NCBI GenBank assembly: GCA_963663765.2
Contig: CAXXUA010000013.1
Coordinates: 192,001 to 256,000 of the forward strand
Direction: 5' to 3'
DNA: 64,000 nt
Origin: Candidatus Poribacteria bacterium
GTDB taxonomy: Bacteria; Poribacteria; WGA-4E; WGA-3G
In this document: piece by piece, positions 17,869 to 30,723 of the stretch
Layout of the letters: every line of letters begins with the position of its first letter
Numbering within the stretch: position 1 is the stretch's first letter
Notes under the pieces: generated by a model
Told to the model about the DNA's origin: nothing
The model's input: the letters and a program-made list of their open reading frames with translations, nothing else
Databases searched by the model: none
Program-made: the position numbers and the translations under genes

Positions 17869-18903
17869 CTACTTTTTTGTATCAAACTCAAAATCTCCGT
17901 TAATTACATCTTGTATGATTTTCCCTCTCCTTATACGGTTTGTCCTACTATTAGTTCCCTGAAGAGCAGAGTTATGATACTCCATTATTTGGCGATGTTT
18001 TTTTGCAAAATCTTCATCTGCTTTACCGGATTTATTAACTAAATCATAAAAACGTAGGAGTCCTTTTCCAACTTCTGCTGGTTTAGCGTTTATTTCTTCT
18101 CTGAATAATGCGCGGTGAATCTCTACGATCAGAGTGAATAAATCTGACTTTCTCCAGGCGCGACTTTTTTCTGGGATGCCACACTTTTTTATAAACTGAA
18201 AGACCTCTTCAAATTGAGTATTTAGATTGTGTTTTTCTTCAAATTCATCGTTGTATTGCCTAAGATAATCTTCAAATTCACTCTCTAAACTGAAATAAGT
18301 TGACATCACTGTAATTATCACAGACAAAGCAAATGAAACATCCCTCATACGCCTAATATCAGTAGAACTGAATACTCGATGCTTTCTAAAAAAAGAATCT
18401 TGTGAAAGCCTATCTGCGAATTGTTTTATTTCTCCATCATATCTTGCATTGTGAATCTCCATAGCATTTAGAGAATAATTTGTTGAGTTAATCCGTTTAA
18501 AAATTTCCTTTATCTCGCTAATACTTGTTTGACCTAAGTCTCGAACAACAACTAAGTAATCATAGAAACTTATTTTTTCTTCATCACTAAGTTTTGCGAA
18601 TGGGATTACTCCACCTGACAGCTTCAAATCTTTAGAAGCATCAACATACTGTTTCAGCGTAGTCAACCTTTGTTGACCATCTACTAACATTTCTTTCGCT
18701 TCTCCAGTATCAGGATTTACTTCACCCGCGGCTATATATATTTCAGGAAAAGGATAACCTCGTAAAACTGTATCAATAAAAGCACTCTTGTGTTTATTGG
18801 ACCACACCAAGCGTCGTTGGAACCCAGGATCTGGCACTAAGGTTCCAGTTCGGAGGCCATTCAAAAGACTGTGGATTCTTCTAGGGCCTGCTGCTACCTG
18901 CAT
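17869..18903 (-). CDS. DUF262 (GmrS/ParB-Srx fold) domain protein without HNH domain
   Basis: FQRRLVW, GYPFPEIY, VDGQQRLTT and EIFKRINS DUF262 motifs; GGAGG RBS; no EHxxP/GNL motif in the C-terminal half. Confidence 0.85.
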   Translation of the reverse strand: MQVAAGPRRIHSLLNGLRTGTLVPDPGFQRRLVWSNKHKSAFIDTVLRGYPFPEIYIAAGEVNPDTGEAKEMLVDGQQRLTTLKQYVDASKDLKLSGGVIPFAKLSDEEKISFYDYLVVVRDLGQTSISEIKEIFKRINSTNYSLNAMEIHNARYDGEIKQFADRLSQDSFFRKHRVFSSTDIRRMRDVSFALSVIITVMSTYFSLESEFEDYLRQYNDEFEEKHNLNTQFEEVFQFIKKCGIPEKSRAWRKSDLFTLIVEIHRALFREEINAKPAEVGKGLLRFYDLVNKSGKADEDFAKKHRQIMEYHNSALQGTNSRTNRIRRGKIIQDVINGDFEFDTKK

Positions 18904-19483
18904 TATTTTCCTCCAAGTTATTTATGCATTCCTGTATACTAATTTTCTGATAATTCTCTAAAAAGAAATATGATCTATATAATGCACCTCTAATTTTATA
19001 ATCACCATATCTTCCACTCCTTGTAACACTCTGAAAAAAATTCCACCATTTTTCTCTTAAATCAAAAATAGACGATTGAGGTAACTTATCAGGTCTTATC
19101 CACCCTCGAAAGAGATAATTAGCAAATTCTCTATATTCGGGCCAATATGGACCTTCATATAGATAATTGTACACGTCTTTCCAAAATTGTTCGAATAACG
19201 TTGAGGATACTATGGCGACATCAATGTCAGAATTATCACTGAATTCACGGTACCGATTTTTAGGTGCAACACTAAAACCAAGCTTTGCTGAACCTACTAC
19301 CAAGACTTGATTTGGATGCAAACCAAAGTTTTCAGCAACTTCTGAACGCAAATCAAAATAGTCTTGATGAGATAAAATACAACATTCTCCGAAAATAATG
19401 TACTTTCTCACTATCTGAATTGATGAAAATTTATTTAAGTCTTCCTTAAATTGATTGAGTCTTTGCTCTACTTCATTATTCAT
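18881..19483 (-). CDS. Small Pol-beta superfamily nucleotidyltransferase-like protein
   Basis: VVGSAKLGFS followed by SDIDVAIV matches the hG[GS]...DhDh catalytic signature; 200 aa; overlaps the DUF262 gene by 23 bp. Confidence 0.7.
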   Translation of the reverse strand: MNNEVEQRLNQFKEDLNKFSSIQIVRKYIIFGECCILSHQDYFDLRSEVAENFGLHPNQVLVVGSAKLGFSVAPKNRYREFSDNSDIDVAIVSSTLFEQFWKDVYNYLYEGPYWPEYREFANYLFRGWIRPDKLPQSSIFDLREKWWNFFQSVTRSGRYGDYKIRGALYRSYFFLENYQKISIQECINNLEENNAGSSRP

Positions 19484-19535: not shown

Positions 19536-20108
19536 TTACGTACAATCTTGTTTCAGCTTTGAAATCTTATCAAAATCTTGGATTGCGGACTCCAAATTGT
19601 CCATTCGTAAGTAAGTCATAGCACGTTTAAAGTAAGCATCTGTGAAGGTTGGAATTAGTTTTATTGCCTCAGAAAAATCTGCAATAGCCTTGTCATACTC
19701 ACCTATTTTCACGTATATTTTACCGCGCTCTTCGTAGATTTCGGCATCATAGGGACGGAGTTCAATCTCCTTGCTAAATCCTTCAATTGCCTTGTCGTAC
19801 TCACCTCGTTCACCGTAAAGGGCCGCGCGAAAACCCCACGCATCAGCATGATCTGGATCAAGTTTAATTGCTATGCTAAAGTCAGCAATTGCCTTGTCAT
19901 ATACCCCTTTCTCATCATATAGTTTTCCACGAGTATAAAATGTCTCAACATCATACAAGTTGAAGTCTATTGCTTTGGTAAGGTATGTGATTGCATTATC
20001 AAAATCGTTTTTTCTTATGTAAGTTTTTGCACGTGTGTTGTAGAATGTGACGAGATTAAGTTTCAGAGTTTCAATATTATTTTTCGCATTAGTATCTAAT
20101 AAGTTCAT
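19536..20108 (-). CDS. Tetratricopeptide repeat protein
   Basis: About 4-5 34-aa repeats (YxxRG...G.YDKAIADFS.AI.L.P). Confidence 0.85.
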   Translation of the reverse strand: MNLLDTNAKNNIETLKLNLVTFYNTRAKTYIRKNDFDNAITYLTKAIDFNLYDVETFYTRGKLYDEKGVYDKAIADFSIAIKLDPDHADAWGFRAALYGERGEYDKAIEGFSKEIELRPYDAEIYEERGKIYVKIGEYDKAIADFSEAIKLIPTFTDAYFKRAMTYLRMDNLESAIQDFDKISKLKQDCT

Positions 20109-20299
20109 TGTTTACCTCAATTTTACAGGTGAATTATAACACAACACATACAACATAGCAATTGGTTTCTGTGATGCAAAAACACACACAGAAATGCAAA
20201 CATCTGTTATACTGCAACAATCGGAAGTCCTAACATTCAACACCATTAGAAAAGGACCGGCATTTTGGATGTTTGAAGGGCAAACTTTTTGGCCATGGG

Positions 20300-20616
20300 A
20301 CGGTTACAACATGCCATAGAAACGTCTCGGACTGCCAACGGATGTTGCTGCATTGGTTTCTAAACTAACTACCGACACAACTGAATTGGAGTTGGTAAAC
20401 CTTAGCATATCTGAAGCACGTGATGTGATTGTCCAAGCTGGTTCAATGGGTGAACACCATTTTACAACTGCCCGATTCAAAGAGGATAACGGTGATAACA
20501 CCGTTGCGGTAGACGGAACATATCTTCAAGTTCACTTACCACCGAACACGCATATTGTGTTAGCAGTGGGAATGGAGCGTTTTGTTAATGCACCTTCGTA
20601 TCAACTGCCATGGTAA
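20300..20616 (+). pseudogene. C-terminal remnant of a large conserved hypothetical protein
   Basis: In-frame TAG just before KRLGLPTDVAALVSKL...LVNLS..ARDVIVQAGSMGEHHF...GMERFVNAPSYQLPW; reads as a protein C-terminus with no proper start or RBS; left boundary approximate. Confidence 0.55.
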
Positions 20617-20653
20617 TAGGCAAATCATCTTATATTTCTGGTGGATGTGTAAT

Positions 20654-20679
20654 GTAGAAGGGGTTTTCAACCTTGATTT
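20654..20679 (+). repeat. GTAG-type REP half-site
   Basis: gtagaaggggttttcaaccttgattt matches the reverse complement of 28299-28324 at 23/26 nt. Confidence 0.6.
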
Positions 20680-20718
20680 TGCACATGCAGTAGCAAGTAC
20701 AATTAGGAGGTAAAAATT

Positions 20719-28905: not shown

Positions 28906-30723
28906 TTAAACTTCAGTATATCCATTGGGTAACGGTTTTCCGCTGACGAGTGCAGATTTCAATGGACGTATATGTCTACAACTGCCACGATACTCAAACC
29001 CGGGACAATCACAGGTTATATCTGCACCGACTACTTCTAAAGTATAAAATTTACCTTTACTCGATGAACTTTCAGCATGATATGTAGTACGTTCAGGACC
29101 AGTTAGCACTTGTGCTAAGATTTTGATAGCTTCTTCTGAATATGGGTTTAGTTGTTTGCTTGTTGCTTCTTCAAGATGTGATGCGTTTTCTTCAAGATAT
29201 GCATCACCTGCATTTTGGAGTACACTTTGAATATCTGATTCTTTCAGTTTTGAGGTCTCAACGGACAATGCGTTCATCATTCTTTTGAGTTCACTGAGAA
29301 CGTCCATCTTTAGTGCTACCTCACCACCAGGAACCAATATTGAACCTTCAACGATGGAATCCATCAATGCTGCTTTTGTTTCCAATACTGTTTTTACGAA
29401 GGAATCAATCGTACCACTTGCGATCATATAGGTAACGTTTACAGTTCCTGTTTGACCGATACGATATGCGCGATCCTCTGCCTGCCAGTGATTTGCAGGC
29501 ACCCAATCTAAATCGTTAAATACCACTTGTCTTGCAGCAGTAAGATTTATCCCTACTCCTGCAATGTGCATATTTGCAACGAAGATTCTGATATCATCAT
29601 CGTTTTGAAACTGATCAACGCGATCCTGCCGTTTATCTGTTGGAACTGCACCTGAAACGTAAACCGCCCGATCCTTGAAGTGCTTTTGAAAACGTTGCAT
29701 TGTGTTGAGAAAGGAAGTGAAGATGATTACCTTTTCTCCCTGTTCCAATGCATTTTCGACGAATTTTATCGTATGCCGACATTTGACAAAAGCAATAGCA
29801 CGACGAACTTGAGTTATTCTTCCCATTCCTGTTCCTAAATCTGTAGCGTCTATTGATTCATTGATTTCATCGCTTTGTGCTGTTGATATTCCGATGGATT
29901 CTGGTAATCCAGCAATGGCTTCTGGTGTCTCAAATTTAGATATGAATTCTTGTACTAATCGATTATAGTGCTGTATAGCATAAGGGTGTAGTTCAACGTC
30001 CATCCATGTTCGAACTTTCGGTGGTAGGTCTAATACCTCGTCTTTGGTTCGTCGTAGCATCACACCATGTAATTGGACGGTTAGTTCTTCAATGTTGCTT
30101 GCGCCATCTGCAACTAACCCAAAATCCCCTTGATATGCTTCACAGTATCTTTTTGCAAAACTGAGAAAACTCTTACCAAGTGAATGGTTTAGTAGTTGTA
30201 GGAGCGGAAATAAGTCACGTGGCCGGTTGGTCATTGGAGTGCCAGTAAGCGTATGGACAACAGGTTCATTTTCAATCTCATGGACGAGTTTAGAAGCGTT
30301 TTGACTACGTTGACTTTGGTAGTTTTTAAGAAAATGTGCTTCATCAAAAACAACACCTTTCCAGTCAAATTCCAAGATCTTGTCAAGGTTTTTACCAAGT
30401 ATTTCGTAGTTGACAATCACCCAACCATTGAAATCTGTTGAAGGAAGGGGTTTGGGTCCAACAATTGCAGTTTCAGCAGCGGGTAGTACAATTTCTATTT
30501 CGCGTACCCAGTTGCGTTTGATAGATGCAGGACAAATGACAAGATATGGACCATCGGGTTCAGCTTCTACCATTGCCAAGATAGATTGTCGGGTTTTGCC
30601 TAAACCCATATCGTCAGCAAGGAGTGCGCGGCGACGACCCAAAAGGAATGCAATACCTTCTATTTGATGTGGAAATAAACCTTCGGCAATTTCTTCAGCA
30701 CGTTTTACACTATTTTCCTGCAT
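28906..30723 (-). CDS. SNF2-family helicase (SMARCAL1-like) with C-terminal SWIM zinc finger
   Basis: LADDMGLGKT, DEAH, LTGTP..N, QAEDRAYRIGQ; C-terminal CDC....RGSCRH. Confidence 0.9.
   Translation of the reverse strand: MQENSVKRAEEIAEGLFPHQIEGIAFLLGRRRALLADDMGLGKTRQSILAMVEAEPDGPYLVICPASIKRNWVREIEIVLPAAETAIVGPKPLPSTDFNGWVIVNYEILGKNLDKILEFDWKGVVFDEAHFLKNYQSQRSQNASKLVHEIENEPVVHTLTGTPMTNRPRDLFPLLQLLNHSLGKSFLSFAKRYCEAYQGDFGLVADGASNIEELTVQLHGVMLRRTKDEVLDLPPKVRTWMDVELHPYAIQHYNRLVQEFISKFETPEAIAGLPESIGISTAQSDEINESIDATDLGTGMGRITQVRRAIAFVKCRHTIKFVENALEQGEKVIIFTSFLNTMQRFQKHFKDRAVYVSGAVPTDKRQDRVDQFQNDDDIRIFVANMHIAGVGINLTAARQVVFNDLDWVPANHWQAEDRAYRIGQTGTVNVTYMIASGTIDSFVKTVLETKAALMDSIVEGSILVPGGEVALKMDVLSELKRMMNALSVETSKLKESDIQSVLQNAGDAYLEENASHLEEATSKQLNPYSEEAIKILAQVLTGPERTTYHAESSSSKGKFYTLEVVGADITCDCPGFEYRGSCRHIRPLKSALVSGKPLPNGYTEV

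Follow-up and report, generated by a model that had tools for sequence, protein, structure and literature searches.

Two overlapping genes, here denoted G1 and G2, in a 64-kb stretch of contig CAXXUA010000013.1 from a Candidatus Poribacteria bacterium (hereafter the window, that is, the whole stretch of 64,000 nucleotides that was analyzed) are a conserved, obligately linked, mobile functional unit. G2 is a DUF262 protein related to NsnA of the Menshen defense system, and G1 is probably a remote, elaborated protein of the Pol-beta nucleotidyltransferase (NTase) fold that resembles the minimal nucleotidyltransferases (MNT). We rate the pair as an unnamed variant of the DUF262 conflict systems that contains an unclassified NTase-like family. 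Tentatively, we propose that the two genes by themselves constitute a conflict module that spreads horizontally and is involved in defense, abortive infection or addiction, in which G2 would be the sensor and G1 the enzymatic output. The observation made in an initial annotation of this DNA, namely, the existence of a distinct NTase-DUF262 gene pair, is confirmed by the present analysis, and the interpretation attached to it is partly supported.

Linkage of G1 and G2

A scan of genomes, one per species, with G1 peptide patterns derived from a closer alignment of the family (A2) yielded 79 G1-anchored loci, a set that is biased toward copies retaining VVGS.KLGF and GWIRPD..P; the state of both genes was assigned with hidden Markov models (HMMs) of the two proteins run over all open reading frames (ORFs) of each locus. 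G2 accompanies G1, downstream and on the same strand, in 76 of the 79 loci, which bears out the proposal of the initial annotation that the two genes form a functional unit. A full-length G2 gene directly follows G1 on the same strand in 68 loci, and among these an overlapping or abutting arrangement is the rule. In the rest of the set, G2 is in pieces (4 loci), located 2-3 kb from G1 (2), adjacent to G1 and cut by the contig end (1), fused with G1 (1) or absent (3, including one at a contig end and one beside a degraded G1). Of the six G2 copies that are displaced or broken, four are accounted for by transposase insertions; transposases were found within or between the two genes in loci L006, L055, L065 and L066 (DDE_Tnp_1, IS1595, DDE_3 and IS3-type). 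When the search is anchored on G2, three plasmid matches cover at least 80% of this protein, and two of them, on Cronobacter pA84-3 and Pseudoalteromonas pTHAF3_a, are immediately preceded by a gene of the G1 family, with one of these G2 proteins showing 28% identity.

The two proteins also diverge in parallel, the pairwise identities of G1 and G2 being correlated with a Pearson coefficient of 0.82 (2485 pairs); a mutual-information scan of G1 against G2 alignment columns in 71 pairs gave no clear signal (top corrected value 0.44). No third gene is conserved over the 79 loci: the 544 neighboring ORFs form 455 clusters; those shared between loci nearly all connect Poribacteria, as do all of the large ones, and a few small ones connect other loci, with no conserved partner among them.

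Complex prediction for G1 and G2 gave a score of 0.45, compared to 0.00 for the best control, with contact agreement of at least 85% between runs and partner values of the predicted local distance difference test (pLDDT) of at least 86. Of 80 solved complexes, 58 reach the mark that this score passes, as do 2 of 110 mismatched pairs, and with scores of 0.60 or less it is reached by 7 of the 80 complexes and both of the mismatches; the pair was run with its own alignments, so these benchmark counts hold roughly. The prediction thus lends weak support to binding between G1 and G2.

Searches at E≤1e-3 detected 701 G1 homologs in a 90%-clustered protein set, 977 representative clusters of the G1 family at 50% identity, and 2593 homologs of G2. 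Together with the low ratios of nonsynonymous to synonymous substitution rates (dN/dS) given below, the counts of 701 and 2593 homologs identify G1 and G2 as real genes far beyond chance.

G2, an NsnA-like DUF262 protein

The only Pfam domain in G2 (here and below, matches to Pfam and to PADLOC, the latter with the model set dated 2023, are considered at E≤1) is GmrSD_N, i.e. DUF262 (E 1.9e-23). The site for nucleoside triphosphate (NTP) binding is intact: the three motifs quoted in the initial annotation are all present, in the form of FQRRLVW, DGQQR and FKRIN, and the residues of motifs I to III are each conserved in at least 95% of the 71 paired loci. As the initial annotation had noted, G2 lacks a DUF1524/HNH nuclease domain, for which there is no match in Pfam. 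According to excerpts of the published accounts, the DUF262 domain of GmrSD, BrxU and SspE is an NTPase that reads the state of the DNA and controls the attached nuclease (PMC10952713; PMC12065111).

The best PADLOC match of G2 is to NsnA of Menshen (8.5e-33) and spans residues 3-335, aligned with positions 46-380 of the 385-position model. Because this match extends to residue 335, the C-terminal ~190 residues of G2 can be considered homologous to the C-terminal domain of NsnA; several charged residues of this region are likewise conserved in at least 95% of the 71 paired loci, the conserved positions being R185, D188, K252, E261, R320, R323 and R326. In the excerpts of PMC12065111, NsnA is described as a ParB-DUF262 protein with a helical DNA-binding 'ParBDB' domain and as the proposed sensor of Menshen. 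The PD-T4-2_A model matches G2 in part (8.8e-19, the best stretch being residues 19-96), and phrog_2598 matches it at 1.3e-35.

G2 is modeled as a soluble protein that combines an alpha/beta with a helical part. The mean pLDDT is 68.9, with a poor N-terminal domain and with helices from residue 161 that mostly score 85-96; the model being mediocre, structural conclusions are limited to the family level. At that level, the best Foldseek matches are BrxU (7p9k) and DndI (9jfl), both at E 4.2e-3, and CDP-bound ParB (E 4e-3 to 9e-3 for the three), and BrxU is also the single sequence match of G2 in the PDB with E<0.1 (E 0.0064).

G1, a remote NTase-like protein

G1 has no match in Pfam, PADLOC or NCBIfam, and is matched by phrog_32008 at 2e-12. 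The sequence elements that had drawn attention in the initial annotation, GSAKLGFS, SDIDVAIV and GALYRSYFFLENYQ, are all there. In an alignment of 74 diverse G1 members (A1), S65, G69, D86 and D88 are present in 74 of 74 sequences, G64 in 73 and S85 in 72; in addition, G127 is invariant, and Y178 and W101 are nearly so. The G-S/D-x-D site of G1 is intact, and the invariance of S65, D86 and D88 argues for a working active site.

The AlphaFold model of G1 is highly confident (pLDDT 96.7; predicted TM-score 0.90). In this model, G64-S65 are located at a strand-to-helix turn and D86 and D88 on the next strand, which is the hallmark of the Pol-beta NTases; additional helices are present at the N- and C-termini. 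Weak, below-threshold matches to NTP_transf_2 were obtained for 27 of the 74 A1 members (best E 3.3e-4 in Pfam), Polbeta was matched by 4 of the 74, and each other Pfam family by a single member. The nearest named Atlas clusters of G1 are NTase-labeled, with the nearest scoring 0.94 and carrying NTP_transf_2 on 11% of its members. The top of the Foldseek list against the PDB, which is non-significant (E 0.5-3, TM-score below 0.25), consists mostly of Pol-beta NTases, including GLD-2, Cid1, CutA, PAP, ANT(4'), OAS1 and CD-NTase. Searches of PDB sequences with either the single sequence or the A1 profile produced no match at E≤10, and tblastn of G1 in a phage collection produced none either. A motif regular expression detected no bona fide MNT proteins in the fetched loci. 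The search for longer G1 proteins with fused domains yielded a single protein, which has a histidine-kinase C-terminus; it is encoded on a contig of 1369 bp, and its significance is doubtful.

Given the weak profile matches, the invariant G-S...D-x-D residues and the confident model, G1 is probably a remote, elaborated MNT-like protein of the Pol-beta NTase fold. The Pol-beta assignment of the initial annotation is, accordingly, the sole reading of G1 that the data favor.

Distribution and mobility of the pair

The 71 clean pairs used for tree construction come from 12 phyla, and the tree mixes these phyla, with nearly identical pairs found across different gammaproteobacterial families. The pair is carried as cargo by a 6.2-kb Cronobacter plasmid and, in L027, adjoins a relaxase with ArdC; its other neighbors include resolvases, insertion sequence (IS) elements, a pSAM2-type Rep protein, and DpnI or SmaI with methylases. 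In Microbulbifer echini (L032, 1988-5322), the pair is flanked by genes for phage head-tail attachment and for a lambda-like tail tube, and forms a moron-like insert in the morphogenesis region of a prophage. Of the 44 non-Poribacteria loci that have full flanks, 37 were surveyed with two genes per side, and a gene for a mobile element, restriction-modification, TIR, HEPN, Fic or toxin protein was found, by reading of the annotations, in 18 loci. The GC content of the pair is below that of its flanks in 66 of 67 loci, the mean difference being 0.117.

The locus in Poribacteria

The description in the initial annotation of two co-oriented genes with a 23-bp overlap holds (Table 1). An AAGGA sequence precedes the ATG of G1, and the start sites of both genes look real; the overlap, together with the GGAGG sequence ahead of G2, suggests that translation of the two genes is coupled.

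Table 1. Positions of the G1-G2 pair, its sequence features and the upstream gene in the window
Feature	Position	Strand	Description
G1	18881..19483	-	200 aa; divergent Pol-beta/MNT-like nucleotidyltransferase-fold protein (probable), no curated family
G1 putative NTase active-site core	19208..19306	-	residues 60-92; predicted strand, G64-S65, helix, long loop, S85-D86-x-D88 on next strand
G2	17869..18903	-	344 aa; NsnA-like, ParB-type DUF262 plus helical C-terminal domain
G2 DUF262 (ParB/Srx-type NTP-binding) domain	18439..18873	-	residues 11-155 (Pfam)
G2 motif I	18802-18822	-	QRxxxW (FQRRLVW)
G2 motif II	18667-18681	-	DGQQR
G2 motif III	18487-18501	-	FKRIN
G2 C-terminal domain	17872..18438	-	residues ~156-344; all-helical, homologous to the NsnA C-terminal 'ParBDB' region
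G1/G2 overlap	18881..18903	-	23 bp; G1 stop region over G2 start
GGAGG	18910-18914	-	7 nt ahead of the G2 ATG, within the end of G1
TPR gene	19536..20108	-	190 aa; co-oriented, upstream of G1, five TPR repeats (Pfam)

The pair is AT-rich relative to its neighbors, as reported in the initial annotation: its GC content is 0.34-0.37, compared to 0.43-0.48 in the adjoining genes on both sides (iolE-like and hydrolase genes), the values being 0.349 for the pair and 0.403 for the whole window, and the drop is seen at all three codon positions. The gene downstream of G2 encodes a TIM barrel similar to xylose isomerases and sugar-phosphate isomerases (Pfam AP_endonuc_2), for which the label 'iolE-like' is fair. 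The other neighbor, previously described as a gene remnant, is an intact ORF in the window; the encoded protein corresponds to the C-terminal half only of 360-aa orthologs (residues 185-360, 75.6% identity), and no trace of the missing half was detected in the 610 bp upstream (20109-20718) at E≤1e-3. A promoter-like site is located upstream of the TPR gene (20133-20161, minus strand), with 13 such sites in total compared to 14.0 in shuffled sequences, and the same scan found no terminator-like site within the block; the TPR gene may be co-transcribed with G1 and G2, for which these results are weak support.

The pair of the window forms, with 15 other Poribacteria pairs, a single clade with 100% support. 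The block consisting of the TPR gene, G1, G2 and the iolE-like gene is syntenic in Poribacteria, with flanking genes that have diverged to about the same extent as the pair (70-89% identity); the TPR gene lies directly upstream of G1 in at least 10 Poribacteria loci and is not a conserved neighbor elsewhere. Both genes evolve under purifying selection, the dN/dS values against the 15 orthologs being 0.12-0.27 for G1 and 0.15-0.23 for G2. The Poribacteria module is thus old, fixed and maintained. Despite this vertical inheritance, the pair still lies ~9 GC points under its flanks, for which we offer no explanation. In L009, compared with the window, G1 and G2 differ in synonymous divergence, with dS of 1.5 (60% identity) for G1 and 0.55 (81% identity) for G2; this discordance is suggestive of recombination between G1 and G2 within the Poribacteria.

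Approximately 9 kb from the pair, the window encodes a 605-aa SNF2-type helicase (28906-30723) that resembles ZorD/DpdE (PADLOC, 2.2e-58). It is the sole strong defense-model match among 22 flanking ORFs and may be a generic helicase.

Relationship with known systems

DUF262 proteins are listed as components of GmrSD, BrxU, SspE, Menshen, Dazbog and PD-T4-2 in the excerpts of PMC10952713 and PMC12065111, to which excerpts of PMC12409362 add TgvAB and GrwAB. The closest relationship of G2 is to Menshen (NsnABC): like NsnA, it has the ParB-DUF262 plus ParBDB plan, with a near full-length model match. However, the ABC-type ATPase NsnB (AAA_15 plus DUF3696), which in Menshen is encoded immediately downstream of NsnA, and the effector NsnC, the product of the third gene, with an inPIN domain and a nuclease or toxin domain, are both absent here, and none of the 22 flanking ORFs matches an Nsn model in PADLOC; instead, the partner of G2 is an NTase-like gene located upstream. 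The identity with Menshen that the initial annotation had considered can therefore be rejected, given the missing NsnB and NsnC, and G2 is related to a single component of that system. In the Menshen paper (PMC12065111), there are 0 occurrences of the word 'nucleotidyltransferase'.

With GmrSD, BrxU, SspE and DndI, G2 shares the N-terminal DUF262 domain including QRxxxW, DGQQR and FxxxN, but the DUF1524 His-Me finger nuclease of these proteins is absent from both G2 and G1 (Pfam). Furthermore, GmrSD-type enzymes consist of ~590 aa compared to ~340 aa in G2, which has an obligate second gene. Lacking the DUF1524 domain, the pair is not of the GmrSD type.

PD-T4-2 and Dazbog are, like the pair described here, two-gene systems that include a nuclease-less DUF262 protein (excerpts of PMC10952713). 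Neither is identical to it. In the case of PD-T4-2, the PD-T4-2_A match is partial and G1 has no PADLOC match of any kind, hence no PD-T4-2_B; in the case of Dazbog, another candidate of the initial annotation, neither DzbA nor DzbB models in PADLOC match G1, G2 or the TPR protein. In relatives from P2-like phages and prophages, the DUF262 gene comes first and is followed by an unrelated gene for a protein of 206-239 aa. Three loci with NsnA/PD-T4-2_A-like DUF262 genes have this organization, with a second gene of 206-239 aa that has no PADLOC or A1-HMM match: at the genome end of the P2-like phage P24B2 (L085, 140-2015), next to an integrase in an E. coli prophage (L086, 3501-5212), and next to Fic/VbhA on a Glutamicibacter plasmid (L084, 3944-5642).

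The gene organization resembles that of HepT/MntA (HEPN-MNT), a type VII toxin-antitoxin (TA) system, in which a small upstream NTase with the G-S...S-D-x-D motif overlaps the downstream partner; the one fused form found here adds to the resemblance. The partner differs, being a HEPN RNase with an Rx4-6H motif in HepT/MntA and a DUF262 protein with no HEPN match in Pfam in the present case, and G1 itself differs in falling under the Pfam NTP_transf_2 threshold and in having extra N- and C-terminal helices. With a DUF262 partner and no HEPN domain, the pair is not a HEPN-MNT system. Excerpts of PMC7641770, PMC11586414 and PMC13000451 report that MntA is an adenylyltransferase that modifies HepT and that fused MNT-HEPN forms exist.

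The pair is not CBASS either, given that no CD-NTase, SMODS or SAVED model in PADLOC or Pfam matches G1 or G2; together with the missing DUF1524 domain, this upholds the earlier view that it is distinct from both CBASS and GmrSD. Other Pol-beta-fold NTases function in defense as toxins or as makers of signals, as exemplified by MenT/AbiEii and CD-NTase/HalB, respectively. These could serve as possible models for the action of G1, although it has no sequence-model match in Pfam or in the 2023 PADLOC set, which may lack Hailong models, and their types of partner, AbiEi, MenA, Cap effectors and the HalA channel, are not recognized here. We found no paper that describes an NTase-DUF262 pairing; the supplementary tables of PMC12065111, with classes of ParB-DUF262 neighborhoods, were outside this search and might list it.

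Possible mechanism and alternative interpretations

In the tentative scenario of a sensor coupled to an enzyme, G2 would act as an NTP-dependent DNA sensor and switch through its DUF262 and NsnA-like helical DNA-binding domains, by analogy with GmrSD, BrxU, SspE and NsnA. G1, which would be produced in a fixed ratio to G2 owing to coupled translation and probably forms a complex with it, would be the catalytic output, as a very divergent MNT-like Pol-beta NTase. Control would run from G2 to G1: once activated, G1 might attach a nucleotide to a macromolecule, for which RNA, tRNA, proteins and DNA ends are candidates, and the modification would halt the invader or the infected cell, with an anti-phage effect as the presumable outcome.

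Two loci with other gene combinations bear on this scenario. On the Asticcacaulis plasmid pASDW145_2 (L083, 3986-6132), an NsnA-like DUF262 gene (418 aa, NsnA 1.8e-36) precedes and overlaps a Ser/Thr kinase gene, the product of which matches the PD-T4-6 defense kinase at 1.9e-26. On the Aliarcobacter plasmid pM830MA (L002, 4830-7489), the gene downstream of a distant G1-family member (A1 HMM 2.8e-21) encodes a 647-aa DUF4365 protein, with no DUF262 partner, which implies that the NTase-like module can change its partner. The pairing of an NsnA-like protein with a PD-T4-6-like kinase and of a G1-like protein with DUF4365 underlies the view of a sensor combined with a swappable enzyme.

Several observations weigh against the sensor-enzyme scenario. 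Foldseek comparison of the G1 model gave nothing at E≤1e-3 in either the PDB (best E 0.47, TM-score below 0.25) or the viral library (best E 0.037), and D132, the candidate for the third carboxylate, which follows the strand 127-128, is not strictly conserved (61 of 74 A1 members). The fused G1-G2 protein (P0133) is identical to the fused ORF of L059, which comes from a single metagenome-assembled genome and is a possible frameshift artefact; we give little weight to the argument from fusion since the two are one and the same protein. The enrichment in defense islands that the initial annotation envisaged is not demonstrated: in the 37 surveyed non-Poribacteria loci, 17 of 148 neighboring proteins, from 12 loci and with two matches that look spurious, are PADLOC-positive, no higher than the crude baseline of the window's own flanks, where 2 of 22 proteins have generic PADLOC matches. 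The window locus itself is surrounded by housekeeping genes (rpsB, tsf, frr and cdsA), outside any defense island, and the Poribacteria pair has remained at a single chromosomal site through dS >1 under purifying selection, a stability unlike that of fast-turnover defense genes. Finally, G1 is the smaller gene and lies upstream, where an antitoxin or regulator, and not an effector, is usually encoded.

This last point leads to the main rival, the MNT-HEPN-like arrangement, that is, a type VII-like TA pair in which the antitoxin G1 nucleotidylylates and neutralizes a toxic G2, as MntA AMPylates HepT, and the toxicity of unmodified G2 would stem from binding, clamping or nicking of DNA in an NTP-dependent manner. 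We consider this interpretation unlikely, even if the gene order, in which a small NTase-like gene with a motif of the S-D-x-D type lies upstream of a larger partner gene and overlaps it, fits it better than the sensor-enzyme scenario. It is also consistent with the reported modification of HepT by MntA and the fused MNT-HEPN forms, with the weakly supported binding of G1 to G2, with the presence of the pair on a plasmid of 6.2 kb, a setting in which addiction would make sense, and with the presence in G2 of five tyrosines that are conserved in at least 95% of the 71 paired loci (Y86, Y116, Y143, Y203 and Y309). However, G2 contains no known toxin domain, and the excerpts of PMC12065111 and PMC10952713 include no toxin that consists of DUF262 only. 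As to the pattern of decay, G2 is hit by IS elements or frameshifts in L035, L055, L062 and L065, the genes are separated by such events in L006, and G1 itself is truncated in L066 and L078; loss of G1 with retention of an intact G2 would count against a toxic G2, but the sample is too small to tell.

An improbable alternative is that the pair, at least in Poribacteria, is no conflict system at all but a domesticated DNA-associated regulatory or maintenance pair that works with the TPR protein, such as a DNA-binding, ParB-like NTPase whose accessory subunit has the NTase fold and is perhaps catalytically inert. The fixed synteny of the four-gene block with its 70-89% identical flanks, the fully supported Poribacteria clade, the low dN/dS values, the housekeeping surroundings and the variation of D132 would all be accommodated. 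Against it stand the patchy phylogeny and the spread of the pair by itself elsewhere, unaccompanied by the TPR gene, via plasmids, prophages and conjugative elements, the disruption of 6 of the 79 loci by IS elements or frameshifts, the GC content that even in Poribacteria remains below that of the flanks, and the invariance of S65, D86 and D88, which points to a working active site.

Least favored, and in our judgment highly improbable, because neither an effector nor a receptor is recognizable, is the model of the initial annotation, in which G1 makes a diffusible signal, a nucleotide or oligonucleotide, to be bound or hydrolyzed by G2 in a CBASS- or Hailong-like manner: it can invoke the NTase-like character of G1, the NTP-binding pocket of G2 and the weak Foldseek matches of G1 to OAS1 and CD-NTase (E 2-3), but no CD-NTase, SMODS or other signal-synthase model in Pfam or PADLOC matches G1 and no receptor model is matched either, no killing effector (nuclease, transmembrane, TIR or phospholipase) is recognized in either protein with these libraries, the DUF262 proteins of the systems described in the excerpts of PMC12065111 and PMC10952713 are NTPases tied to DNA recognition and not second-messenger receptors, and the tight 1:1 coupling and likely complex formation would make a diffusible signal unnecessary.

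Implications

DUF262 proteins are recurring anti-phage sensors, and how the nuclease-less ones, those of Menshen, Dazbog and PD-T4-2, deliver their effect is still an open question. The G1-G2 pair is compact, with two parts in 1.6 kb, and widespread, and accordingly offers a simple system in which to ask what the DUF262 switch controls. G1, in turn, is an unclassified NTase-like protein with a very confidently predicted fold and no significant structural neighbor. It is a rather doubtful possibility that G1 represents a new Pol-beta clade gated by a ParB-type, NTP-dependent DUF262 sensor of DNA or that, in the mirror image, a ParB-type toxin is restrained by nucleotidylylation. If G1 is indeed driven by G2, nucleotidyl transfer would be an added enzymatic output for the DUF262 systems, and for the first time a ParB/DUF262 switch in an immune or addiction module would be seen to control this reaction instead of a nuclease; NsnA-like sensors would then appear as a plug-in platform for interchangeable outputs, namely, nuclease, kinase and NTase. 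The long, stable residence of the pair in the genomes of the sponge-symbiont Poribacteria raises the question of its role in these bacteria.

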